Shown here: positions 12,408 to 64,000 of the stretch, piece by piece | How the letters are laid out: every line of letters begins with the position of its first letter | Position numbering within the stretch: position 1 is the stretch's first letter | Origin: Yuukianura sp. NJ FZ-2021 | Lineage: Eukaryota | Length of the DNA: 64,000 nucleotides | Reading direction: 5' to 3' | Assembly: GCA_046563655.1 (NCBI GenBank) | Contig: CM102289.1 | Coordinates: 3,472,001-3,536,000 of the forward strand | Made by a program: the position numbers and the translations under genes | Notes under the pieces: model-generated | What the model was told of the DNA's origin: nothing | What the model saw: only the letters and a program-made list of their open reading frames with translations | Databases searched by the model: none

Positions 12408-12509
12408 TGTAAGTTTCTAAAATCACACTTCTAATACCAACCGGAAGTGAATGTATCAACTGTGCTTGATTGGAAATTTAGGTTCTGCTGAGTTACTGGG
12501 AACCGGCAA

Positions 12510-13918
12510 TGTGACATTGGACACCAGAATCGCTATAATTGGGAGCGGAATTGCCGGCTTATCGACTGGACTTGCACTACACAACGCTGGATTTACTCAA
12601 GTAAGGATTTACGAACGGGACGATTGTTTTGACCGGAGACGACAAGGCTATGGACTCACAATGCTACAAGGAAATACTGTCCTCAGAAGACTGGAGTTTA
12701 TGACAAGGTCAACCAGATTGACACGCCCTCCAGATCACTGCATCTTCGACTGTCATGGCAACATTGTCGGATTCTTCGGAACCAAATTCTGGCCATCACC
12801 AACCTCTGACAAGAAGGCCAAGTACAACCTCCATGTCTATGTCAGCAGACAGAATCTACGCAAAATACTGTATGAACAACTGACACTAAAGGCACAAGGA
12901 ATCGTTCAGTGGAACAAGATGTTGGATTCCATCTTCCAGTTCCAGAAGAGCCTAATAACGGTGAGGATTCGTGGGAACTTTCCTTTTCGGATGGACATTT
13001 TACTAAGGTGCAGTTGGTAATTGGTTGTGATGGGATTAACAGTTTCGCCCGTCGTCAAGCCTTTCCGGAAGATGACAATCCGCTCAAATATTTGGGAATC
13101 CTACTTGTTCTTGGTAATTCAAACATAATCAACTTAGTAAAATCACTATAATAGTAGTAATATAAAATAAAAGTACAAGTGTGTTTCTTTTTTAGGTATC
13201 ACTAGGACTGATCACTACCTAATAAGTCAAGAACGAGTGTTTCAAACTGTGGATGGAAACACAAGACTGTTTGCGATACCATTCTACGGAGATGAAAGCA
13301 GTCCGCATGAAAATATGATGTGGCATCTGTCATTCCCAGTGGAGGAACAAGAAGCGAAACAATTAGCTGCCAACTTAGATCAACTAAAAAGAAGAGTTTT
13401 AGAAATGTGTGGAAACTGGCACGATCCGAATCCATCCCTCATCCAGTCAACTAATTTGTCACTGCTCATGGGTATCCCTACCTACGACAGAGACCCTCAA
13501 CTGCCATGTCAAACTTCGAAGTCATTGGTGTTGCTTGGAGATGCTGCTCATCCAATGTCTCCCTTCAAAGGTCAAGGATCAAATCAAGCCTTACTGGACG
13601 GAGTCTACTTTACAGATTGTTTAAGTCGTGGAGTGAGCATAGATTCCGCTATTCGTAGCTTTGAAAGGTGAAACTGAAATGTGGAACAGAGTTCGTCGGA
13701 AAGTGTTGGATTCCAGAAAAAGAGCAACAACTTTCCATCACCCGGGCGTCCTCGGAGGTGACTTTTTCCTTTACCGGGGAATTGGACAAGAATTCCTCCA
13801 AAAGTTAAAAGAAAAAGGAGTCAACAGCAGCAGTGGAGAAGCAATCGATGACCTAATTATTTCAGAACTCAAAGGCCTCAATCTCAACGGTTACGGCAAC
13901 TCAACTGCTCAAAGATAG
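12510..13918 (+). pseudogene. Class A FAD-dependent monooxygenase (salicylate-hydroxylase-like fold), multiple frameshifts
   Basis: GSGIAG Rossmann motif, VIGCDGINS and LLGDAAHPMSPFKGQGSNQALLDG spread over several frames; intron ~13114-13195. Confidence 0.88.
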
Positions 13919-30801: not shown

Positions 30802-31491
30802 ACGCTAAAAATAGAAGTTTATAAATAAAAAAAAAATTAATGAGCATGCTCAAATATTTTGTTTGTCCGTAGATAACAATGCTCAAACGGAATAAAATTT
30901 CCTGAAAACATATATTAAAATGAGTACCACCTTCTTTTTAATTCCAAAAATAATCCCGTAAAAATTTTATGAATTGTTTTAAATAATGATTATAGAAGGT
31001 TGTGTTATAAGGATTTCGCACTAAAGTTTACTTGCGGTTTTTACTGCTGCAAAAATGTCCAACACAGACGAACCAAGGCAAAAAAAAAGTTACAAGTTGT
31101 TTTTATACTTCTTTTGGCAATGATGATAGATATATTTCCAGCTGCAATAGTTATAACTCTGAAAGAGAATGGAATTGCCTCAATCAGTATAATGAGCTCA
31201 TTGCTGGATATTTTAAGTGGTGACACTACTTCGCCTTCTATGGCAAAAAAAAAACATAAACTGACTTGGTGAAGTTAAGATTCTGCGAAAACTCGCGAAA
31301 TCTTCTACAGTTGAGAAATAAACCTATGTAAAGCAAACTCAAGAGCTGATCATTATTAAATGAGACTGTGAAAAATCGAAACGGTGAGATCAACCAATTA
31401 AAAAATTTACTGCATATCCGAGAAGTAATTATTGCTTTAATTTCAGATTTAAATGTAAATTCTTGTAATTGTATAGAATTTTTCGCTTGCA

Positions 31492-33106
31492 GATTTGCCC
31501 TTCACTCATGCTAAGGCCACTGCAACGAAATGAGGTGCATGCACCACCAGTTATACGTCCTGCCCTTGGAGCGGTTGCAAAGTTGGGAGATTTGTATGAC
31601 CGTAGCTCCGATAATTTTACCGGCGACACGATGTTCACACGGGAGTTGTCAAATACAGAACGCCGTATTGACAGAATTCCCAACAAACAAACGAAGCATA
31701 GAAGATCAAACACATTCTTGGAAAAAGTAGGTCACTGGACAACGGATGAGGATTTAGAACTAGGCTTGAATATTGTTGGTGGTGCAGTGACTCTGGCAGG
31801 TTGTGGGAAGTACTTTGAACAACTAGTTTCTGGCTCTGAAGACGTCAGTTGTACTCTGATACATCAAATTACCACGGTGCAAGAAGAGATTAACTTTTAT
31901 AATCCTGGCGTACTAAAAGAGGTCAGTTCAGTTGAAGCTATTGAGAATAGTCCTCAGGCAACTCATTTCGTTTATGGAATTAATTGGGGAGCAACGCTTT
32001 TTCTAACTGGGACTTACCACGGTACTGACAAGGAAACTTGGAGGGGAGAAATTTCTAATCAGCTAGAAGCGTGCTTCCGTCAACTTTAACTTGCAGCAAA
32101 AGGTGTGGCTTATTGGAACTGCAGAGAATATGAGTCAAAAATAGTCAAGGATTCAACGTTTCATTACATGTGCGATACTTTTCCGGGACGTACTTTGGAG
32201 GTAACATTGGAACAAGCTTATGATTTAATCTCCAATTTTCCAAACGCACTATCAGAGACAAACGAGGAAAAAGGAATACAAGTTTGCTATTTCCTTGCTC
32301 CTTTGTCTATTCTCCGACACTGGCTTGAAGTTTCACAAAACTTTCCAAAATTCTTCACTCCATGTCAATGTTCTATGAGTCTCGAAACCTACGGAACTGG
32401 GGACATCACTCTGAAAGTTTTTTTGAACCGAGTAACTAAACTTTTTGATGATATGAATATTGCAAAACAGTTACTGAATGACCTTGGCAGTGACGCAATG
32501 TACAAAATCTTTCACTTTAGTAAAGAACCTCTTCAGGAAATAAAAACGTTGCAAGATCATTTCCGAATAGACTTCCGCGCGCTTCTTCTTCAAGTGAAGC
32601 GTGGAACTAAGCCTTTTCTTGACATGCTGAAACTTATTCAGAAGTACGAAGAAAGCGACTTCTCCGGTGCAAAGATCATTTACCTTTTGGATCATTGCTA
32701 TGGTTCAGAATCAAGAAAAAGAGTAGACATGTACTATTTCTTATGGGGACATAATGTCACTTTTATTCCAAAGGGAACATGGTTCGCTGAAGATTCTTCA
32801 TACACAGTTGGATGCCGGCAAGCTTACGTTTTATACACAAGTTACGTGCACAAAATGAATGAAATAAATAGTAAATGGCGTAAGAACGTTGAAATCTTCT
32901 TGATGTTGATAAGAAGTAGTCAATCAAATCCAATTCCTCCCAGATTTATTTATGTTGACACGGACATATCAAAAGACATTCCAATGACTGGAATCAGCCA
33001 CTACAGAAATGGAGCGTGTGTGTCTTTCGATAGTTATAGAAATCAAAGGCGTATTTTCAATTGTACTCCGATAAAGAACAAAGTATTGTCAATTTTTACG
33101 TTTTAA
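31492..33106 (+). pseudogene. Stonustoxin/neoverrucotoxin-like protein interrupted by one in-frame stop
   Basis: RPALG...LGDLYD...D.F and ATHFVYGINWGA resemble the stonustoxin-family N-terminal region; ORFs 31469-32089 and 32105-33106 share a frame, separated by TAA at 32087-32089. Confidence 0.65.
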
Positions 33107-48834: not shown

Positions 48835-51073
48835 ATGCTCTTTGAAATTTTTCTTGGCGGTTGCATGGTCTTTGTTTTGAGATTATTGTACGAAAATTTA
48901 ACTGGGCGCAAACTCCCCCCAGGTAAGTTGTGCAGTTGAATTATAGGAGATAATTTATAATTATGTAAATTATAATGAAAATGTTTGGCTGGTATTGCTT
49001 TTATATGTTATGTGACTTCTTTCGTCAACAAGGCTGTTTATAATAGGTCCAATCAAATTTCCACTCATTGGAAATTTGGTGCAAATCCTGCATGCAAATA
49101 TCAAACCACATCTGGCGTTTACAAAACTTGCACAAAAATACGGTGACGTTATGCAACTGAAAATGGGAGTATGTGATCTCGGTAAGTAAATAATAATAAT
49201 TTATTTATATTAATAACAATAAGAATTTGTTTACACAAAAAATATCATTTCGTTTCTTGAATTGTGTAGTTGTCATATCGTCCAGTGAAGCAGCGCATGC
49301 AATTTGTTCCCTAGATTCTGTCACTGGCCGTCACCAATCACCTTTTATGCTATCACGCACCTTTGGAAAAAATATTGGTACACTGTCGAGATAATACAAA
49401 TTTCAAAATAAAGGAAAATCTCAAGATGCTTTTGATCTCTTTCAAAGGATTTTTCTTCAGCGGTGGAGAACTTTGGAAAAATACGAAACGGTTTGTAGTT
49501 AGAAATCTGCGTAACCATGGATTTGGAAAATCCCAAAGTATGGAGAAAGTCATTTTAGAACAAGCAGATGAACTGGTGGAGCGACTAGTGGAAGAAATGA
49601 AATCTCAAGGTCGAATTGACATGAGCGACTGTTTCGGAATCCCGGTTCTGAATGTCCTGTGGAGCATGGTAGCTGGTGAAACATTTCCACAAAATGATGT
49701 GCGCTTGCGCAGACTGCTTCAAATTCAAGACGACACTGTCAAGAGTGGCGACTTTGGTGGTGGAATAGAAATGTGCTTTCCGGTTTTAACAAAATGGTTT
49801 CCAGGGATTTGCGGCTACACGGACTTTGCCGAAAAAAATAAGATTTTGCAGAATTTTATTAGAGTTGAGAAAACTATGATATGAGATGTATCTTCAATTT
49901 CTTTTACCAGGTTTAAAATGGTGTTTGATTTAACTTTTGGGTGTTTGATAGGAAATTTTGAACTCTCGACGTAAGTACTTGGAAAATCATAAACCGACTT
50001 GCTTCACAGACACTTTCCTGATTGAAATTGATAAGTCGAAGACTTCAGGAAAGGAGGAGTTCTGTGGTGTGTGTGACACTTCAAATTCGATTTTAAAAGT
50101 TTAAACTTCCTAAAAACATAATATCCTTCAAAATTTAAACTTATCTTTTATTCATTTTAGAGGAACATGGCATCGTAACTGTGATGGACTTGTTCACGGC
50201 AGGCGGGGAGACCTCAAGCACCGGTTTAACATTTTGCGTACTCTACACGCTGCTGTTTCCCGAAGTCCAAAGCAAAGTTCATCAAGAAATTGACCGATTT
50301 ATGCTGACTGAAAACTCGGCTCCTGGAATGGACGACATTGAAAAGTACTTTCCAAATAATATACTGTTGGATAGCGATGTTGCCAACATATTGATGCTAA
50401 CTAGGCTTTATGTTTACACGATGCAACAAGAAGATTATTCGGTTTATACTTTAAAATCTTAATAGGTTTCCTTACACTCGTGCAGTTATACTTGAAGTCA
50501 TGCGTCATGGTATTGTTGTTCCGTTTACACCCCCGAGAACATCGTCTGTGGATATTGAATACAATGGAATGAGAATACGCAAAGTAGGCCACTTATACTT
50601 AAATCTCAAAGTTCTCATTTTGAATTATATTGTTCACTTTTTAGAATACTCCAATTTTAGTAAACATTGCAGCGATAGTATCAAGAGAAGATGTATGGGG
50701 AGACACTAAAAACTTTCGACCCGAACGATTTTTATCCGATTCCGGAGAATTAGACTTACAACAGTGCGAGAAATTGCAAAACTTTGGATTTGGTAATAAA
50801 AAAACGTTTCAATATAAACTTCAATTTTTACTTAATAAAATTTGGTGCTACATAATTTCATAAAAACAATGTTACACAGGTCATCGGCGGTGCCCCGGTC
50901 AACGCTTGGGGGAATCCATCATGTTCCTGTTTTATATTCGGCTACTTCAACGATTTCAATTGGTTTTTTCAGACGTCAATCAACCGCCAACTCTTGAACC
51001 AAACGTTGGTTTTACTATTTCACCTAAACCGTTCACTCTGGAACTTATTATTCGCCAGAGCAACTTTCCATAA
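48835..51073 (+). CDS. Cytochrome P450, CYP2 clan (9 exons, apparently intact)
   Basis: LPPGP.KFPLIGNL, WKNTKRF, DLFTAGGETSS, EVMR, FRPERF, FGFGHRRCPG; canonical introns; TAA at 51071-51073. Confidence 0.95.
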
Positions 51074-52461: not shown

Positions 52462-53647
52462 ATGAACATCTTGCAAACTACAACGTGGAATACTATCATA
52501 TTCGGGTTGCTTTCAGCATTTTCACTGGTAAATTTTACAATTTTTGGCCTTTTATCTGAGTTTGGTAATAACTCGCAATTTTAATTCTTTTTCAGTTTAC
52601 AGCAGTTAGTGGAGAAAGCAATGTAAACAACTTGGGGTCACGAAACTCATCTTTGGGTAAAAAAAATTGCTTTGCTACTGCTGGTCCTAGGCAGGAACAA
52701 ATGTTGTCACTAAAAAATTTACAAATTCACCCATTTTTCGTGCAAGTTAGTGCAGTATATAAATTTAATAAATTGTATTTTAAAACAATTTATGTATAAC
52801 AGAAGGGCTAATGGATTTACACCGAAGTAAGAGGGCGACTGACTCCAAAGCACTTGGCGAATGTGCCACTCAAACATTTGTTTACTGTCCTTACAAATTC
52901 GATTTCCAAATGAGCCCTACCGTAAAATCGACCAAGGCAGAACTTGCTCTTTGCAAAACGACGTGCCCTGGTACCAAGGATTTGGATACGACTGTACCAT
53001 ACGAAGGTTGCGAACATGAGTATAGTTGTCTTAAAAAACCTGACATGTGCAAGGCCCTGGGAGCCAGTTGCTTTAGAAAAAATATGGGAAAAACTACTTT
53101 AGTTTATGACTGTTGTAACGGCAGAATTGTTACTCCTGACGGAGTAAAGATTCCGGTTGCTGGAGATTGTAACCTGAAGACGCTTAAATGTGAACCAACG
53201 TTTCCGCTTAATACGGTGTGCGGCAACGGAATGAAGGAGTACTTACGCTGTTACGTTGATCCCGAGGATATAATAGGAGAAACCGCTCGATGCGCTTATC
53301 CAACTGAGCCTATCAAGGATCCTAGCGACGACAAGCCACGGGTCGTAAGAGCCATCAAGCAAACAACGACTAATGGTGTGCAGGTTGAAGAACCAGGACG
53401 CTGTCGCCGAAAAGTTAACACTTGCAACACAAAGCCACCGCTGAAAATTTTCTGCGGTACTAAGCTTCCAAAGGAGTACGACAACTTCCCCTTCTGTGCC
53501 TGCCCATCACCCGACGGGGAAACAGGTTACCACTGTAATATCGTCAAGAAATGCGTTCCATGTAAGCTGGCAGGCGTCAGTTGTGGAACCACAGCCGATT
53601 GTTGTACCAAGCACAGCTGTAGCCAAGGCACATGCGTCAGAGACTAA
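52462..53647 (+). CDS. Secreted Cys-rich protein with a propeptide and knottin-like modules (3 exons)
   Basis: Exons 52462-52527, 52596-52656, 52803-53647; signal peptide; RSKR furin-like site; C-terminal CKLAGVSCGTTADCCTKHSCSQGTC. Confidence 0.8.
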
Positions 53648-54024
53648 CCGTGGTTCCAGCCGCTTGTCGTTTCTTTCTTCAAAACTGCATTTTTAGAATT
53701 TGCAAAATTACCATTTTTGTTTAGTATATCGAATTGGAATTAAATGCCTCATTTTCCATTTGAAAGATAAATAAATCCAATTATATAACTCGCCAAATTT
53801 TTTTTAGCTTATCTGAAATAAAGTGTGGTTTGGGATTTAGGACGAAACTTGAATGCGGTAATGCAGATGACGTCCATCTTCCACATTACTGGAACTTGAC
53901 AACATTCATTAGACATGTATCTCAGAATTCATGAAAATTATTTTGGCAATGTGAAATCTGGACTTCATATCTAAATGCGCCACCAAAGTTGACGTAACTA
54001 GGTTTCTAGGATATAATCAGCCCC

Positions 54025-54819
54025 CTGCGTTTGGTGTTTGAACGGTGTTTGTTTCGAGATTCTTGTACAAAGATTTAACTAGGCGTAACCTGCCCCCAGG
54101 TAAGCTGTGCAATGGGATAATGTGAAATTAATTTATAATTATGCAAATTATAATAAAAATATCTTACTTCTATTCTTGTTAGTAAGTTGTGCGACCTCTT
54201 TCGTCAGCAAGGCTATTGTATTATATAAAATATGGCTTGGCCAATTAGGTCCAATCAAATTTCCGCTCATTGGAAATTGGGCGCAAACCCTTAGTGTTAA
54301 TGCCAAACCGCATCTGGCGTCTTGCACAAAAATACGGAGACATTAAATTTTTTTACTTCTTAGAATTCTCCAATTTTGGTAAACATTGCAGAAATTGTAT
54401 CCAGAGAAGATGTATGGGGAGACACTAAAAACTTTCGACCCGAACGATTTTTATCTGAGTCCGGAGAATTAGACTTACAACAGTACGACAAACTGCCAAA
54501 CTTTGGATTTGGTAATTAAAAAGAAACTTTTCAGAAGGTTCAATTTCTACTTAATAAAATTTGGTGCTGCATAACTTCATAAAAACAATTTTACACAGGT
54601 CATCGGCGCTGCCATGGCCAACGCTTGGTGGAATCCATCATGCTCCTGTTTTATATTCGGGTTCTTCAACGATTTCGATTGGCTCTTATTGACGTCAAAC
54701 AACCGCCAACTCTGGAACCAAACGTTGGTTTTACTATTTCACCAAAACCGTTCTCTCTGGCATTTATTACTCGCCAGAACAACACATTCTCCAAACAACT
54801 ATTTCCACAGAACATATGA
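54025..54819 (+). pseudogene. Internally deleted copy of the neighbouring P450 (remnants of exons 1-2 plus the last two exons)
   Basis: High similarity to 48850-49150 and 50640-51070, introns included; middle exons missing. Confidence 0.9.
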
Positions 54820-55262
54820 TCTTCGCTAAAGTCTGTCTACGTTTTAAGTTCAGACTTCAACAAAATTTAAAAAGCAGAAGAACTTAATTTTTGATGCTAA
54901 ACTAGATTTTGGGATTTAGACTTTAGTTTATGTTTGTTTAGATTTGGGGAGTTAATTTTTAGCAAGATTTTCAAATATTCAACTTCTGCATCCCCAAATT
55001 GCGCTATCAACTGAATTTCATTTAAAATCGGTGCAAAAAATAGAGAATTATGAGAAAAAAAGTTGATGTCTTGGCACTACGGACTAACATGTTCGATTTG
55101 CTTCCGATGCAAAACAAATTGTTATTATCATTTACTTACTACAATTTTTTCCAATGGTTTATTAAAATCTATCCCGATAATTTGAAACGTTTATATTTAA
55201 AATAATTTCTGCCTCTAGTAAGCTTTCCTTAAGTCGGTCACGATTTACATGAATATTAGATT

Positions 55263-56584
55263 CTACTTTGGGTAACCGATGCCGTCTAATTCCCACTGAA
55301 GCGAATTTTGAATAAAGTTCGTTGTCATCAGTGCACTGCGCAGACGCAACTCTTCGTCGCCATTTTCACCACATTGCTCCTGAATGACAAGCAAAGCTCT
55401 CACCACCTTGGCAACATGTTCATCGTCACATGCCACTGCCTTCTGTTTTACAGTATCCCATGAAACACCTTCTAGTGATCCTCCATACTCCAGAATTCTG
55501 TTGATGTCAAAATTCGGCATTCCTTGGAGCCACATATTTGCCAGAATGCCCACCATACCCACTTGAAGAAGCCGCTTCTGCTCCACCAGGCTGAGGTGGG
55601 GCAGCAAAATTCGGATTGCTTGGAGTGACGTTACACTGTGCATTAGATAAAGGTCAATGGTGTTGTGTCGGTGTGATCCAAATGTCACTGCCAAAACGGC
55701 ACGAGAGAGCTCAACCAGTTTTTTAAAAATTTCGGCGGAGGTTGTAACTTTAAGGTTCCACTTGGAAATCATTTTGCCTAGTTCTGCTTCGTAGTGCTCC
55801 AAGATCTCTTCAATTTCAAACCCAGGTTTGTGCACTCGGGGCACCTGAAGATTCATTTGCTTCATAGTTTCAGCGGCTTCGAGCGGAGTCAAGGCATCCT
55901 CACCATCATTTTCTGGAAGACGGTCAATGATTTCTCCAACTTTGGAATAATATGTACAGGCATACGCAAGCCCTTCAGCGACAACTTCTGGAAATCCAAA
56001 TTCAATTCCAAAAGAGATATGAATCAGAGGATGGAACAGACCACCGACAAAACCCGGCAACAAGGTGGGCACAAATTTTGTTAGGGTTGGCACGAGTCCT
56101 AGTTCGGAAATTTGTTTTTCAAAAAATGGCAGCAGCTCTGTGTATGCACTGAAATTTCAGAGATTCATTAACTCAGTTTTTGATTTTTTTTTAAATTTTA
56201 TCCAAATTTGAATCAGGTTTTGTGTTACTGTTGATTTCCAATGTAGGATGTCCAATTGGTTGCATCCACTTTGAACTTCGGGGTTCCAAGAGGCTCAAGG
56301 ATTTGAATGTATTTTTGATAGTATTGAAGAATTCTTTCTTTTGAGGCTGCTTACATAAATTCATTTTAACAATATATATATTTACTTTCTATTTGTTTTT
56401 TAACTATAATTTAATATTGACACCGAAAAAAATTACCTCCTAGCGAATAAAGTGTACACAACCCATGGACGGCGTGGTTTGAGTGGTAGCCCGTGTGGTT
56501 AATGTGATGGGAAATATGATTCTGTTTCACAAGAAACTCAACCATGTCTTTTGCACTTGTTATTTTACTCAAAGTTGACTCCAT
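55263..56584 (-). CDS. Questin oxidase family (AflY/HypA-like) oxidoreductase, copy 1 (3 exons)
   Basis: GYHSNHAVHGLCTLYSLG, GGLFHPLIHISFGIEF, VVAEGLAYA, LMHSVTSL, DDEHVAKVVRAL; exons 56584-56437, ~56349-56229, 56148-55263. Confidence 0.85.
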
Positions 56585-57095
56585 TGTTGTAACCGTAAAA
56601 AACAATAATTATTGATTAAGTCGTTTTCTTTAAAACTGAAATCAACAAAGTTAAATACGGGAATTTTTTGAATTAAAACTCAAAGCTGCTGGGTGCAAAC
56701 AGCTCAAAAATTAAAAGTTGACGAGTATATTTAACAGGAAAGTTGCAATACATCTGTGCCCCACGTATGTAACTCATGTATTTTTGAAATAGATAACCAA
56801 CAGAGGACAAACGAAAGATTAATATGATTTTTTTGATTTTTTTTGGGTATACTATTGGAGTGCTGAGTTGAAATAACCTTGACGCTTTGCACTAACCACT
56901 GAGGAATCCCGAGCTGCTGCAGCGTTTCCTCTGGTTTTATTTGGCATAGTGTTTTTGAAGTGCATAAGATGGAGCGCTTATGAAGAATTTTTTTGGGTAG
57001 TTCACATAACCTTTGGTCCTAACTTCTGCTTCAACTATGCCTTCCTTAAATTGCTTACAATTTAATTTGAATAAGGTTAGATTTAAATGCAAATT

Positions 57096-58410
57096 TTAAT
57101 TTGGATAACCAATGCCGTCAAATTCCCACTGAAGCACATCTTGAATGAAGTCAGTCGTCATGAGCGCACTGCGCAGACTCACCTCTTCGTTCCCATTTTC
57201 ACCACCTTGCTCCTGAATGACAAGCAAAGTTCTAACTACCTTGGCAACATGTTCATCGTCACATGCCAATGCTTTCTGTTTTACAGTATCCCATGAAACA
57301 CCATCTAGTGATCCTCCATAGTCCAGAATTCTATTAGTGTCAAAAGTCGGCATTCCTTGGAGCCACATATTTGCCAGAAGACCCACCAAACCCACTTGAA
57401 GGAGCCGTTTCTGCTCCACCAGGTCGAGGTGGGGCAGTAAAATTCGGATAGCTTGTAGAGAAGTTACGTTGTGCATTAAAAAAAAGTCTATGGCTTTGTT
57501 TCGATATGACCCAAAGGTCACTGCAAAAACGGCACGAACCAGCTCCGATAGTTTCTCAAAAATTTCAGCAGACGTCGTAACGTGAAGGTTCCACTGAGAA
57601 ATCATCTTCCCAACGACTGCTTCGTGCTGTTCCCAGATCGCTTCAACTTGAAACATCCTTTTGTGCTCTTGGGGCACCTTGAGGTTCATTTGCTTCATAG
57701 TTTCAGCCGCCTCAAGCGGAGTCAAGGAATGTCCTCCGTCATTTTCTGGTAGGCGGTCAATGATTTCTCCAACTTTGGAATAAAATGTGCCGGCATAAGC
57801 AAGGCCTTCAGCGACAACTTCTGGAAATCCAAATTCAATTCCAAAAGCGATGTGAATTAGAGGATGGAAAAGACCACCGACGAATCCCGGCAACACGGTG
57901 GGCACAAATTTTGTTAGGGTTGGAGCTAGTCCTAGCTCGGAAATTTGTTTTTCAAAAAATGGCAGCAGCTCTGTGTATGCACTGAAATTTCAGAGATCTG
58001 TTTTTTATTTTTGATTTTTTAAAAGAAAATTTAACCAAATTTAAATCGTGGTTTGCGTTACTGTTGATTTCCAATGTAGGATTTCCAATTGGTTGCATCG
58101 ACAATGAACTTTGGGGTTCCAATAGGTTCAAGCTTTTGAATGTAGGTTTGGTAGTATTCAAGAATTCTTTCTTTTGAGGCTGTTTACACAAATTCAGTTT
58201 AACTTATATATTTTGTTACATTTTTTTTAACTACTGATATAATTAAATGTTGACATAATTACCTCCTAGCGAATGAAGTGTACATAAGCCATGGACGACA
58301 TGGTTTGCGCGGTAGCCACCATAGTTGATGTGATATGAGGCATGATTCTGTTTTACAAGGAACACGACCATGTCTTTTGCCTTTGTTATTTTACTCAAAG
58401 TCGACTCCAT
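57096..58410 (-). CDS. Questin oxidase family oxidoreductase, copy 2 (3 exons)
   Basis: Tandem paralog with the same introns; NHVVHG, HPLIH, DFFLMHNVTS, DDEHVAK. Confidence 0.85.
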
Positions 58411-60200
58411 TTTTAAAAGCCCAAAAAGAATTGATGACAAAGTTCTTTTCTTTTAAGAAAAACTATTTCAACAAAATTATTTTAAAAAACTAAATTCCGA
58501 ATTACACTTCAACGCTCCTGTGTTGGTACTTCTCAAAAAGTGAAACTTGATAAGTAAAGTTAAATGGAAAACTGACGTAATCTATCCCTCACTTATGTAA
58601 CTCAAGTGTTTTTGAAACTGACAGCAGATGATGGAAAAAAGATACTTTCGATGTTAGGCTATTGAGTTGAAAAGTCCTTGGCTCGTTGTAGAAACCAGAA
58701 ACCACAAAAAAATCAGGAGGTGCGGCTAATTACTTCAGCAATTAGGGCATGTGATCTTGTAGCGCCGTTTTAATTTGGTGAATTTCTGAAGTACCTAATC
58801 AACAACAGAGTGGTAAGGAATGTTTTTAGCTACAAATCAAGTACTTCAAATAACCCTGGTGCTAATGACTGTTTGAGCGATATGAAAGGTGTACAGAAGT
58901 ATGAAGCGTCTCGAGGCGTGGAGAAAGGATAGCCACAGTTTCCAAGCCTTTTTTGGAGATTATGGAAGCGCTAAACTCATCCTCCGGCTCTCGAGATTCT
59001 CGAGTCGAGAATCATAATTGTTTCTTGCCATTCTGCTTTCAAATTAGTTTTCAAATTGGTATCAAATTTTGCTCTCTTTAAACGATTCAATTTCGTTTCG
59101 TTACTCATCGTCTTTCAAATCTTTGTAACTTCATCATTAAGATTATGAGCGCTTGTCACCATTACGACGTTAAGTATGATTTCATCGAGTTGAGTTTCTG
59201 AACGGGGTTTTTTCTTGTGGTTGCCATTTTAGAATATCCTGATGGCCGTACATGTCGAGTTGAAAATTTCAACTCTAAATCGAACAATGGAATGATATAG
59301 TGTTTAACTGACAGTTTCAGCATTTCCTTGGCAAGAAACAATCAATCTGATGTCAAGAAAAAAAACGAGGCCATAGTAAAACATGCTTACAATTGCCATC
59401 CAGTTGTTTGGCCTCTGTTTTAGCTTCTGACAAAAAATATGGCTCCACTCTAGTGTTCAGGATTCGACTACAGAATTAGGGTAACTTAATTAGGAATGAT
59501 GTGTCCAAAAGAGAGGATTTCAAAGTTTTCCAAATCAACACAAAAAAAAAAAAAAAAAAAAACAATAGGAAATCAAATTTGCATTAAAAAATTAATACCA
59601 CGAATTGGAAAATGAAATTAAAATTAAGTTGTTTTGGATACTGCATTTGAATTTAGACCGAATTTATATTTCTGAGTAAGGTTATTTGTTGTTTAGTTTT
59701 CTGTAGTTTGTACCGTACTGTAATTAAAGCTTACTAATCGTTTAGAAACTAACAATGAAAGTGTATAGCGAATAGGAAAGAAAAAGAGCAGAATTTTGAA
59801 CCGAATCTTGTTTTCAAATAAGAATTGTTTTAACCTAGTTTTGCGGAATCGTAAAACTCCGAAGACTGAAATGCAGTGTGAGCTCTTTTCCCGGGCGAAA
59901 GTGATTACACTTTCGCCGTCCAAAGACTCACACGACTGCCAACTAGTATTTGCGCCAAGCACCATATTAGGTTAAGGCATTCGCACGGGACAAAGATACT
60001 CGAGGTTATAGTAGCTAATTATAGAATTGCGAGGGCTTTAAATATGCCTCCACAAGAGTCAATCGGGAGTTGACTCCAAGATCTGTTAGCTCACACTCTC
60101 ACCATCCCTTAAGAGACAATAAAGACGATTCGACCCAACTTACATTAAAATACATAGAACCCGACTTATGTGAGGAAAGTACCTCACATGCAGCATGGAC

Positions 60201-61883
60201 CTAAAGTCCACACTTTTTGTTATCTCCACATTTGTATTTTTTGCAACAAATTTCCGGGTCAGCAGCACAAGAGAATCCAGTGGTTCCGCAGTTTCTTGGA
60301 GTTCTCGTTTTTGAACAATCCACAAATGTGTTTGGCATTTGACCTTTGCAGAGAATGTACTCAGCAATGACTGATTTTCCGCTCGAATCCGTACAATTTT
60401 TCCTCTCTTGATGGTAACCACAGAAATTAAAGGCACGATTTACACGACAATCTTTAGAAGTTAGGTCGCATTCCGGTTGACACTTTCGGCCCAATCCACA
60501 GACAAAACCGGTACAGCAAGACTTAACGGTTTCATTTAACCATTTACATTCAGCTCCAGTGATTCCGCATTCCCTTGGTGGAGTGGAGGACGAAATCGCG
60601 TTGCATTCAAACCAAGTTTTTGGTTTTGGCCGTTTGCATGCTAGGAATCGAGCGGGAGCACCAAATACCCGGTTATTAACGGTACAGTTGACGATTTTTA
60701 CCGAAGTGGCTGTATCGGAACACGGTTAATTTGCGGAATTCCAGACGCATTTTTTGTCATCAGCTGAACTGCATTCCGGTTGGCAACTTCCTGTGTTACA
60801 CTGTAACCCAGTGCAGCAGTTATCTATTGGGATGCCAGTTTCGTTTTTGGTACATTTCGACCCAGGAATTGGGCAATCATTAGGTGGCGGGTTGTAGTTT
60901 ATATTTGGACATTGAATCATCGTATTCGGTTTGCTTCCGTTACAAAACAAGTAATACCCGGGTATCACCTTACCGTCTTTGCCAGTACAGTTCAAAAACC
61001 GTGTGTCAGAGTTGCATGCTGACAATTCAAGAGAAGGTTTGCAGTTATTGTCGTCAGCGGGGCATTCTGGTTCGCAAATGTTGTTCTTGCTGCATTTGAA
61101 ATTGACGCAACATTTTTTGATGCTTTCGTAAGTGCTGCAGTTGTAGCCAGTGCTTCCGCATTCTACGGGTTTATTGTACGTGTTATGACATTGAAGCCAC
61201 GTCCCATTGGTCTTTGTGATGGCGGTATTGTTACATCGGAGATAACGCCCAGGAAGCCCAAATTCCCGCCCATTTTTGTCAGTGCAAGTCTTTAGCAAAC
61301 TGTTAACACTGTCTCTGCCGGCGCATGGAACTTTGGCATAATTTGTTTTGCAAGTAGTGTTTCCTTCAGCGCACTCTGGTACGCAAGTGCCATTTGGACA
61401 GTACAGACCAGGGCAACAATCATCTACAGGCTCCATAACACTTCGCGTACAGTTAGCTCCAGTGGCGCCACAGATAGTCGGCGTGTCCTTTCCTGTTTTG
61501 CAGTAAGTCCAAGTGTTGGGTTTGGTTCCGTTGCAGGCTTTATAATTACCTTCAAACACGCGCCCATTTTGGTCTTTGCAACTGCTGATGTATTTAATGA
61601 AACTCTGGCACGGAGGAGTGCATCCGGCGATAATTTTGTATCTTCTGGCATATGTTGCGGACAAATCATTACAAGACTCGCCCTTTATGCAGCATCCGTA
61701 GGTTGTTCCGTTGAATTTACAGCCTTTGAGGTGGGCAGCGCAATAGGAACATTTGGAATCTGTGCAACTGAATGTTCCACCGATGTTTCTTCCGCCAAAA
61801 CTACCATCGGCACATTCCGTTCCATTATCGCCTGAACATGTTGTTGGAGAGACGCCAGGGTTCGGAACAGTTTTCGAATCAAA
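60201..61883 (-). pseudogene. Large Cys-rich repeat protein (knottin-like modules) with an in-frame stop; 5' exons not resolved
   Basis: Five ~90-100 aa repeats ending CG.TG..C...CC....C....C.PEC; the frame continues through TAA at 60728-60726 into ORF 60494-60201. Confidence 0.75.
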
Positions 61884-62254
61884 CTTTAAAAAAAAGAACA
61901 AAAAGGTTGTTAACACAAAAAAAAAACATCTAATGAATTTCCATTGTTTTGTTACCACAAGCTCTTAAAATTGTCAACTTTGTAATTAAAAATAAGTTTC
62001 AGTTTTTCCAAAAGTTTAAGGTCAGGTCACTTGACCTAACCATAAAAGTAGCATCCTGTTTTTGATCCAGTTTCTTAAAATCTTTTGAGAATCTGCCGAC
62101 TTGTTTTCAATCTCCCTTTTCCAAATTCTAAAGTGCAAGGACTTTTACTGTCATAAAAGTCCTCATATGACGGTCACCCATGCAATAGCATTAGGTGACC
62201 CCAAAAACTGTTTTTGCTCTCCATTCCAGTTTTATACTTTCTGTCCTTTTATTA

Positions 62255-64000
62255 TGTTACAAACAGACCCTTAGCTAAGGACAATACCTTTTTGCTTAGT
62301 ATAAATATTTCTGGAATCTCTGAATAAATCATCAGTATTCTTCCGAATCTCTTACTTACTACATGGTAGCAGATCAGGAGGTTGTCTAAAACAATAACGT
62401 TTAAAGTCAAGATCTTTGAACAATAGGGAAAGCTCTCTTCATCCGAAAGCTCGGGTACACTCAAAGTCTGACAGTTGTACTCTAATTGCTCAACAAGTCG
62501 CAGAGAAAAGATTTGTTGTCCAAGTTACGCATACAGTCAAAAGCTCCTCCCGCGTGGAGGGTGAAATTGGCTAGTTGTGCACCAAGTAACTAAGTGACAC
62601 TTATCATCTCAATCCTACGGGTCGACTTAGAGACTTAGAGAGGAACGTTGGACACGGAGTTGTATCTGTGGTCAAAGGTGTCCGGAGCCCACCTATTGTT
62701 CTAAATTTCATAAGAACAATATTTAAAACAATAAGAAATGTCTACGCCAGCAACAACAACCAAGAAGAAAGTCGACATTACGCATGTCGTGAAGCTTAAT
62801 GACAAAAACTACGAGGTGTGGCGGTTCCAGATAACCGCCATATTGAAAGCAGCCAAGTTGATGGGCGTCGTCGATGGGTCGAAGCCACGCCCCGCTGAAG
62901 CCCAGGACCAGCCAGCATGGGATGAACTGGACAATGAAGCCCAGGCTCTTGTCATCCCAACTCTTGATGAACGAAACACAAGCCACGTGATCAGCTGTGG
63001 AACGTCCAAGGAGATAGTGGATCGCCTTAAAAGCATCCACTCCGACGCCAGCCAGCTCAACAAACAGCTTACGCTCTCAGCCTTCCTTAACTACAAAATC
63101 AAGGAAAATCAAACTCTCCAAGAAGCATTTGAGGATCTGGAGAAGCTCTCCAGAAGCCTCAAAGACATAGGCAGTCCAGTGGATGACTCTGTGGTCATCA
63201 CGAAACTTGTCACCGCGCTTCCAGACAAGTACATGGGATTCCGCAAGGCGTGGTTTAGCGTCACTCAAGCTGAGCAGACAATGCCGAACCTGCTCGCCCG
63301 TCTGAAGCAGGAAGACCTGGAGCACAACAATAAGCCACAAGCGGCTTCCAGCACCTCCAAGGCCTTCCAATGTCAAACAAATGGAAAGAAGAAAACAAAC
63401 ATTGCGGAGCTCAAAAAGAGAACAAATTGTGCGAAATGTGGACGCCGTGGCCACTGGGCGAAGGAATGCCGGAGCCCATCAACATCGAACGGCAACAATG
63501 GACAGCAAAACGGCAACAATGGGCAACATAGCGGCAACAATGGCGGAAAAGGGAGCCAACAGCAGCACAGATCTGCATCCGCCTTCATGGCAGGTGGAAT
63601 AGTCGATCCAGGGGACTGGGTCAGCGACAGCGGTGCCTCTCACCACATGACGGGGAATCGGGCTTGGCTGTTCAACTTCAAGCGATTTTCACAGCGAAGA
63701 ACTGTAGAATTGGCCAATGGCCAAAAGGCTCAGGCAACCGGATACGGAGATGTGAACATCCTCATCAAACAGAATGAGACGACACGCCATTTCCAAGATG
63801 ACGCTGATGTTCAATTCTGCCACGTCAAGCTAACCCACGTCTGGTTTGTGCCAGGCTTCCGCAACATCATCTCTGAAAGCGTGCTGACATCAAAAGGCTA
63901 TCTAATTTCAAGAAACCACTTTAGTACTCAGTACTATGGGCAAAATGGTGACTTCGACATGACTGCAACGCGCAAAGATGGCCTCTACGTCATGAACATA
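62255..64000 (+). mobile_element. Ty1/copia LTR retrotransposon, 5' part
   Basis: Candidate LTR TG...CA 62255-62363 containing TATAAATA and AATAAA; PBS TGGTAGCAGA at 62364 (complementary to the 3' end of initiator tRNA-Met); gag-pol follows. Confidence 0.9.
62738..64000 (+). CDS. Copia gag-pol polyprotein (partial, runs off the window)
   Basis: KLNDKNYEVWRFQI (gag N-terminus), zinc knuckle CAKCGRRGHWAKEC, protease WVSDSGASHHMTG. Confidence 0.92.
   Translation, partial: MSTPATTTKKKVDITHVVKLNDKNYEVWRFQITAILKAAKLMGVVDGSKPRPAEAQDQPAWDELDNEAQALVIPTLDERNTSHVISCGTSKEIVDRLKSIHSDASQLNKQLTLSAFLNYKIKENQTLQEAFEDLEKLSRSLKDIGSPVDDSVVITKLVTALPDKYMGFRKAWFSVTQAEQTMPNLLARLKQEDLEHNNKPQAASSTSKAFQCQTNGKKKTNIAELKKRTNCAKCGRRGHWAKECRSPSTSNGNNGQQNGNNGQHSGNNGGKGSQQQHRSASAFMAGGIVDPGDWVSDSGASHHMTGNRAWLFNFKRFSQRRTVELANGQKAQATGYGDVNILIKQNETTRHFQDDADVQFCHVKLTHVWFVPGFRNIISESVLTSKGYLISRNHFSTQYYGQNGDFDMTATRKDGLYVMNI

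Follow-up and report, generated by a model that had tools for sequence, protein, structure and literature searches.

An intact tandem pair of questin-oxidase-family (PF14027) genes with fungal affinities in a hexapod genome

The dioxygenases of the questin oxidase family (Pfam PF14027, DUF4243) include BTG13 from Cercospora (structure 7Y3W), GedK, MdpL and AflY (8YXS), which cleave anthraquinone hydroquinones, and PaD from Penicillium (8Z4Q), which acts on small monocyclic hydroquinones. In the accessible text of one report, the centre of BTG13 is made up of four histidines and the carboxylated lysine Kcx377, to which His58 and Thr299 are hydrogen-bonded as second-shell support of lysine carboxylation, and His53 contacts the substrate from a loop that is variable among family members (PMC12173810). 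The corresponding iron ligands of PaD are given as H63, H166, H317, H394 and the carboxylated K397, and three additional lid loops are said to set the preference of this enzyme for small substrates (accessible sections of PMC11371914). A different chemistry, oxygen insertion and rearrangement, has been assigned to the family member OzmD (PMC12173810). As far as the accessible sections of both papers go, DUF4243 dioxygenases have been described in fungi, in plants and in one bacterial pathway, that of OzmD (PMC11371914, PMC12173810), and a search of the literature on questin oxidase, DUF4243 and AflY found no paper on the family in animals. Here we describe two adjacent genes of this family located in animal DNA, whose nearest named relatives belong to early-diverging fungi. 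They lie in a stretch of 64 kb (hereafter the window) from Yuukianura sp. NJ FZ-2021 (assembly GCA_046563655.1, contig CM102289.1, positions 3,472,001 to 3,536,000), and are referred to as gene A (55263-56584) and gene B (57096-58410), both on the minus strand, all coordinates being positions in the window.

An initial annotation of the locus had described two intact genes with introns common to both copies and four conserved histidine motifs, and the gene models bore this out. Both reading frames run through 383 codons to a stop (1152 nt of coding sequence in three exons), the two introns occupy the same codon positions and phases in A and B, all four introns run from GT to AG and contain just 18-24% GC, and the translations harbour NHAVH (A) or NHVVH (B), HPLIH, MHSVTS (A) or MHNVTS (B) and DDEHVAK. 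In gene A, the modelled exon 1 (56437-56584) starts with the ATG at 56582-56584 and encodes an N-terminal helix with the NHAVH motif, and the modelled exon 2 (56229-56346, 118 nt) was matched by tblastx to positions 27-149 of L001, the metagenome contig behind the closest relative found (see below). Exon 3 (55263-56148), an open reading frame (ORF) with a PF14027 match, encodes residues 89-383, including HPLIH, MHSVTS and DDEHVAK, and ends in the stop codon at 55263-55265. These exons are separated by intron 1 (56347-56436; 90 nt, phase 1, 18% GC) and intron 2 (56149-56228; 80 nt, phase 2, 24% GC). Gene B is built in the same way, with exon 1 at 58263-58410 (ATG at 58408-58410, NHVVH) and exon 2 at 58062-58179 (118 nt), both from the gene model, exon 3 at 57096-57981 (ORF with a PF14027 match, stop codon 57096-57098), intron 1 at 58180-58262 (83 nt, phase 1) and intron 2 at 57982-58061 (80 nt, phase 2). 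An alternative acceptor 3 nt upstream (56349) would, if used, add one alanine to the gene A product; the form with 383 residues is the one that gene B and L001 have. The start codon of either gene is the first ATG of the open frame, and an in-frame stop is found 9 (A) or 15 (B) codons upstream.

The flanks of the two genes contain further candidate elements on the minus strand. Reading of the sequence suggests a polyadenylation signal AATAAA 100 nt past the stop of gene A (55158-55163), and for gene B an ATTAAA 30 nt past the stop (57061-57066) and a further AATAAA at 56936-56941. Some 120-205 nt before the ATG of gene A, blastn revealed an element (56703-56789) with a counterpart upstream of gene B (58532-58617), the two being 76% identical inside otherwise diverged 5' flanks, which makes them candidates for promoter-proximal or shared regulatory sequences. 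The duplicated unit itself (55260-56585 versus 57093-58411) is 84.5% identical across 1329 aligned bases and repeats with a period of 1833 bp. When the gene A product was compared with the 64-kb window by tblastn, no third copy was found.

The family placement proposed for the pair was confirmed by profile searches. Exon 3 alone, which spans profile positions 59-340 of 340, matched PF14027 with 149 bits (E 3.3e-43) in gene A and 152.6 bits (E 2.7e-44) in gene B, the gathering cut-off being 27 bits; scores of this size are not explained by chance. The exon 1 and exon 2 peptides of both genes, scanned singly against Pfam (four of the six queries), gave no match. Against solved structures, phmmer searches with exon 3 retrieved BTG13 (7y3w, 1.3e-11), AflY (8yxs, 5.2e-10) and PaD (8z4q, 7.4e-10), and exon 1 alone gave chance-level matches only (E 0.3-7). 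Exon 1 could nevertheless be aligned, column by column, to full-length fungal relatives at their N termini, and a profile that included it matched AflY (1.4e-43) and BTG13 (2.7e-41) from about residue 28 on. A protein atlas comparison confirmed the family and nothing beyond it. A and B are thus members of the PF14027/DUF4243 family.

The complete set of iron ligands is present in both proteins: H37, H128, H259, H333 and K336 correspond to BTG13 H55, H158, H296, H374 and K377, and the second-shell pair H40 and T262, contained in the NHxxH and MHxVTS motifs, corresponds to BTG13 H58 and T299 (these equivalences, including the BTG13 numbering of three of the histidines, were counted along printed alignments). 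The position of BTG13 His53 is occupied by serine in A and by alanine in B, alanine being also the subfamily consensus. Since the loop carrying this residue varies between members, according to the accessible text of PMC12173810, the change bears on the substrate and not on membership of the family. With every ligand present and the His53 residue replaced, the metal site is fully kept and the substrate loop is unlike that of the characterised enzymes.

The two products are identical at 315 of 383 residues (82%), and the coding sequences at 991 of 1152 bases. The Nei-Gojobori estimates of nonsynonymous (dN) and synonymous (dS) divergence between A and B were 0.097 and 0.390, a ratio of 0.25, and contigs from related samples ran gap-free over exon 3 with 26 differences in A and 49 in B. 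Both copies are intact, as first described, and under purifying selection. It had also been remarked that the copies differ near the motifs, which was taken as a hint of different substrates. The difference exists (DLYLMHS in A, DFFLMHN in B), but there is no excess of changes near the metal-site motifs, as 11 of the 61 residues within 6 positions of the seven site residues differ between A and B, compared with 57 of 322 elsewhere (Fisher p 1.0). A divergence focused on the active site was rejected on primary sequence, and different substrates for A and B are not supported by the comparison.

The surroundings of the pair are those of an animal genome. The window is free of gaps (zero N in 64 kb), its GC content is even (32-46%), and the GC content at third codon positions (GC3) of A (0.44) and B (0.42) resembles that of the neighbouring genes (0.36-0.45). 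Thirty-one ORFs outside the pair were scanned against Pfam (sets of 23 and 9, one ORF being in both), with smaller exons left out, and these larger ORFs included a rhodopsin-type G-protein-coupled receptor (7tm_1), an ionotropic receptor (Lig_chan), a cytochrome P450, ALG8, a carboxylesterase, a MACPF protein, an FAD-binding protein and a copia element. The P450 is the closest of them: its last two exons (54364-54519 and 54583-54819, plus strand; Pfam p450, E 8.5e-6 and 3.6e-8) converge on gene A and end about 450 bp from the gene A stop, and an earlier exon of it is nearest to vertebrate CYP2B/2C structures, which points to an animal-type, CYP2-like enzyme. For the carboxylesterase, the top five matches with a name all came from the symphypleonan springtail Allacma fusca (38-39% identity), followed by insects, other springtails and crustaceans. 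In five public DNA runs from two studies, 14-25% of the sampled window words were present, and four of these runs, compared with the region as contigs only, showed 90-99% likeness to it. Among those contigs, one from X1 spans 54715-55349 and joins the end of the P450 to the end of gene A, one from X5, belonging to the second study, spans 55067-55395, and one from X3 spans 56109-57966 and bridges the junction between A and B. The animal neighbours, the matching GC3 and the bridging contigs, which come from both studies, indicate that the pair is part of an arthropod genome; it is located in a hexapod, most likely a springtail, as the assignment to an animal had anticipated.

Relatives of the two proteins were collected by a HMMER scan of 1.84 billion representative proteins, in which 803 passed the cut-off of E<=1e-3 and 9 reached E<=1e-30. 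The best of them, P0001, has an identity of 56%, with values of 35%, 44% (a fragment) and 33% for those ranking after it; word-index searches were less productive, with 2 proteins matched by gene A and 11 in a second search of this kind. An organism name was available for 18 of the 32 relatives looked up, and all 18 are early-diverging fungi: Basidiobolus and Dimargaris (3 each), Dispira, Tieghemiomyces and Calcarisporiella (2 each), and Thamnocephalis, Spizellomyces, Synchytrium, Geranomyces, Massospora and Neoconidiobolus (1 each). None of these 18 names belongs to Dikarya. The named fungal proteins are at most 34% identical to the window genes, and no match from outside the subclade of the latter exceeds 40%. 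The kinship to anthraquinone and xanthone enzymes that had initially been stressed did not survive this comparison, because it is to uncharacterised homologues from early-diverging fungi, and not to GedK, AflY or MdpL, that A and B are closest; an anthraquinone substrate is therefore not indicated.

Phylogenetic analysis placed the pair next to fungal sequences. A quick tree of 71 rows (P0001-P0070 without P0065, which has <200 aa, with P0008 swapped for its longer cluster-mate P0151, plus A and B) and a careful maximum-likelihood tree of 43 rows picked from it agreed on the relationships, and the support values given here are those of the careful tree. A and B group together (100/100), are joined by L001/P0001 and P0004 (99/95), then by P0003 (100/98) and then by P0005 (95/86). 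These six rows, hereafter the window subclade, have as their sister a clade of seven rows in which Massospora cicadina and Neoconidiobolus thromboides, both Entomophthorales, are found (97/90). Further outward follow a Basidiobolus paralogue (82/61), the Dimargaritales (91/80) and the Thamnocephalis group (91/87).

Within this subfamily, one to three iron ligands are replaced in P0048 (Neoconidiobolus), P0007 (Basidiobolus), P0151 and P0009, and in P0151 the threonine partner of the carboxy-lysine is replaced as well. These replacements suggest that part of the subfamily is probably non-catalytic, unlike the window genes.

The introns were found to extend beyond the window. A metagenome scan with a narrower alignment recovered a single locus, the above-mentioned contig L001, in which the homologue of exon 2 (28-145) is followed by a 55-nt GT..AG intron (146-200) and by the homologue of exon 3 from position 201. 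Its junctions fall at the same codons and phases as in A and B, and the contig begins with an intron 1 acceptor at the matching place; outside the exons, the flanks of L001 have no similarity to the window. In three further gene calls, P0003, P0151 and P0285, the last one close to the Massospora protein, homology ends exactly at the intron 2 codon, the residues before the break resembling a translated pyrimidine tract plus CAG, and in the deposited Massospora model everything between the position of intron 1 and a point inside exon 3 is missing. The intron positions thus seem to be common to the fungal sister clade, as read from the ends of proteins and not at the DNA level. Should this be right, both introns would be older than the split between the window and entomophthoralean subclades, and would have come with a transferred gene or be ancient. 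The pair had at first been read as a domesticated acquisition, and the introns are no clear sign of this, since their positions recur in L001 and, as it seems, in the sister clade of fungi.

These comparisons are best read as pointing to an origin outside the animals. On balance, the pair probably descends from a hydroquinone-cleaving dioxygenase gene that passed long ago from a fungus near the Entomophthorales to a hexapod and was later duplicated in tandem. The Entomophthorales are pathogens of arthropods, and an early-diverging fungus close to them would have been the donor in a horizontal transfer, direction and donor both being deduced from the relatives. The two introns may have arrived with the gene, which would since have taken on the base composition of the host; tandem duplication with the 1833-bp period would have followed, both copies then being held under purifying selection. 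We predict that the products act in the cytosol as non-haem iron dioxygenases of the BTG13/GedK/PaD type, in which the four histidines and a CO2-carboxylated lysine would hold Fe(II), the iron would activate O2, and a C-C bond would be cleaved in a hydroquinone-type (1,4-dihydroxy-aromatic) substrate. We infer both this catalytic activity and the hydroquinone-like substrate from the sequences. Candidate substrates are phenolics or quinones, whether dietary, fungal or endogenous, and it is plausible that the enzymes help to process phenolics from food or fungi, possibly together with the adjacent P450; the detoxification of dietary quinones proposed in the initial annotation stays hypothetical. 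A more pointed version of this history is tempting and yet doubtful: an entomophthoralean pathogen would have passed DNA with fungal introns to its hexapod host, where it would have been spliced, kept and duplicated with its full iron site, making A and B the first animal members of the family.

It should be considered that a number of observations weigh against transfer from a fungus. Regarding the horizontal acquisition proposed in the initial annotation, the fungal relatives and the sister clade containing Entomophthorales stood, and the nesting of the window genes inside fungi proved suggestive but not significant: constraining the zoopagomycete group to its 19 other rows, with the window subclade kept out, cost a delta lnL of 17.4 in the approximately unbiased (AU) test (p 0.078), for a group that was defined after the tree had been seen. 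The tree has no root, and the presence of both Basidiobolus ranarum and Calcarisporiella in two separate clades reveals paralogues within single fungi. The 14 relatives without an organism name include all four of the nearest (P0001, P0003, P0004 and P0005), environmental sequences that may be animal or fungal, and the absence of animals from the 18 named relatives (of 32) refers to a protein collection, animal genomes not having been searched directly. Intron positions common with the fungal side would also suit ancient vertical descent. As to function and host, the serine or alanine at the His53 position counts against a BTG13-like enzyme, no polyketide synthase, methyltransferase, cluster regulator or other natural-product gene occurs among the 31 scanned ORFs outside the pair, and the springtail assignment stems from one fast-evolving neighbour gene at 38-39% identity.

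Several of these points bear on vertical inheritance, according to which PF14027 genes with these introns were present in the opisthokont ancestor, were kept in the hexapod lineage and in early-diverging fungi, and were lost in most animals. The occurrence of PF14027 in chytrids, zoopagomycetes and Calcarisporiella shows that the family is old in fungi; L001 has both intron positions, intron 2 is apparently present in P0003, P0151 and the Massospora-like P0285, and the break in the Massospora model coincides exactly with the site of intron 1; and the AU result leaves a placement outside the zoopagomycete group open. Against such descent, none of the 18 named relatives is an animal, even though the collection includes proteomes of springtails and insects, the word-index search with gene A matched only 2 proteins, and searches for PF14027, DUF4243, questin, AflY and IPR025337 returned no entry in the genome supplements of Folsomia candida and Orchesella cincta that were searched (one Orchesella file lying outside the search). 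Moreover, the window subclade is sister to the sequences bearing the Entomophthorales (97/90) with other zoopagomycetes outside, and given this fungal sister and these outgroups, vertical descent would need an odd fungal topology and many losses in animals, which makes it rather unlikely. The same topology speaks to a transfer in the reverse direction, from an arthropod host to entomophthoralean fungi, since the two subclades are reciprocal sisters and those fungi live as pathogens on arthropods. The successive outgroups are all fungal (Basidiobolus, Dimargaritales and the Thamnocephalis group, with the support given above), and no other animal homologue appeared among the relatives looked up; it is therefore more parsimonious to derive the whole clade from fungi, and we consider the reverse route very improbable.

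That every named relative is fungal would likewise be expected if the pair came from a fungal contaminant or a chimeric assembly. To this we attach next to no probability, because the 64 kb are gap-free and an animal-type P450 exon ends about 450 bp short of gene A, the pair matches its neighbours in GC3, its introns share the AT-richness of the surrounding DNA, the X1, X5 and X3 contigs link the genes with each other and with the flank, and the named fungal proteins are at most 34% identical. A further alternative concerns function only: the fold may have been kept and ring cleavage lost, A and B being binding proteins or enzymes with another chemistry, such as an OzmD-type oxygen insertion and rearrangement. 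The ligands missing in P0048, P0007, P0151 and P0009 indicate that the family tolerates non-canonical forms, the His53 equivalent is changed, and OzmD itself exemplifies other chemistry within the family (accessible text of PMC12173810). In contrast, A and B keep all seven of the metal-site and second-shell positions checked and evolve with a dN/dS of 0.25, so that a loss of catalysis seems quite unlikely. A fungus-to-hexapod transfer of a gene for a functional dioxygenase remains, in our view, the reading that best accommodates the tree, the metal site and the setting of the pair.

Other features of the window deserve mention in their own right. Between the end of the P450 and gene A (53838-55267), sequencing depth in X1, X3 and X4 falls sharply relative to both flanks, and several contigs depart from the window sequence exactly at 55267, just beyond the gene A stop, with a minor-depth contig following the window; this suggests structural variation or another haplotype in related samples. 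An ORF of 287 aa (52784-53647, plus strand) lies between the P450 exons at 49315-49884 and 54364-54819, has no Pfam match and displays a GC3 of 0.44, like coding sequence. On the other side of the pair, two abutting minus-strand ORFs of 174 and 412 aa (60201-61964) match no Pfam family (Dickkopf_N, E 0.052, is below threshold) and could belong to a host gene, a pseudogene or a mobile element. They are followed by the gag-pol region of a Copia-type long terminal repeat retrotransposon (62735-64000, plus strand; Retrotran_gag_2, E 2.7e-26, zinc knuckle and Pol_BBD), which runs past the window end. Farther away, two adjacent plus-strand ORFs (31469-33106) carry a stonustoxin (SNTX)-type MACPF/CDC-like domain (PF24674, E 5.9e-13) and DUF7656 (PF24676, E 1e-9), and this looks like a gene for an SNTX-like pore-forming protein in a hexapod genome. 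FAD-dependent monooxygenase-like exons occupy 12451-13671 (plus strand), with an N-terminal DAO/NAD_binding_8 region, a later FAD_binding_3 motif and weak PDB matches (E ~1e-3). Rfam and tRNA scans of the window gave no match.

Compared with BTG13 and AflY, the window proteins belong to the same Pfam family and have the four-histidine and lysine ligands and the second-shell positions H58 and T299 in common, but they are some 60-70 residues shorter (383 versus 444-456 aa). They differ from BTG13, GedK, MdpL and AflY also in their animal host, in the absence of a polyketide cluster among the ORFs scanned and in having their relatives in early-diverging fungi. With PaD they share the family and the ligand set, the match (7.4e-10) covering the C-terminal half, whereas PaD has 473 aa, 90 residues more. 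As 383-aa proteins, A and B would be short, compact enzymes for biochemistry, and an intact and constrained pair in an animal would extend the four-histidine/carboxy-lysine dioxygenases, structurally recognised only recently, to Metazoa. Their nearest named relatives in the tree are the Entomophthorales proteins of Massospora cicadina (KAI0244783.1) and Neoconidiobolus thromboides (KAI9295277.1), which are of similar length, contain the same N-terminal NH..H region and apparently have the intron positions in common. These relatives, all uncharacterised in function, are about 25-30% identical to A and B, and of the ligands, all retained in A and B, the Neoconidiobolus protein has lost three. 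Since the apparent donor group parasitises arthropods and the introns are seemingly common to both sides, the locus may offer a concrete case for studying transfer between eukaryotes and the survival of donor introns in it; if true, it would represent gene flow from a pathogen to its host, both of them eukaryotes.

Fungal carotenoid genes are carried by aphids, mites and gall midges. Foreign genes have also been reported in springtails, in the genome papers of Folsomia candida and Orchesella cincta (accessible sections of PMC5490193 and PMC4987106). Given that springtails are well known to carry foreign genes, a case of this kind is no novelty in itself; what is new here is the enzyme family, together with the donor group and the question of the introns. 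The pair differs from the foreign genes of Folsomia and Orchesella in that PF14027 was not found in the supplements searched, and resembles the fungus-derived genes of springtails, aphids, mites and gall midges in being a fungal-type metabolic gene that stands among host genes, has the composition of the host, and has been duplicated and kept.

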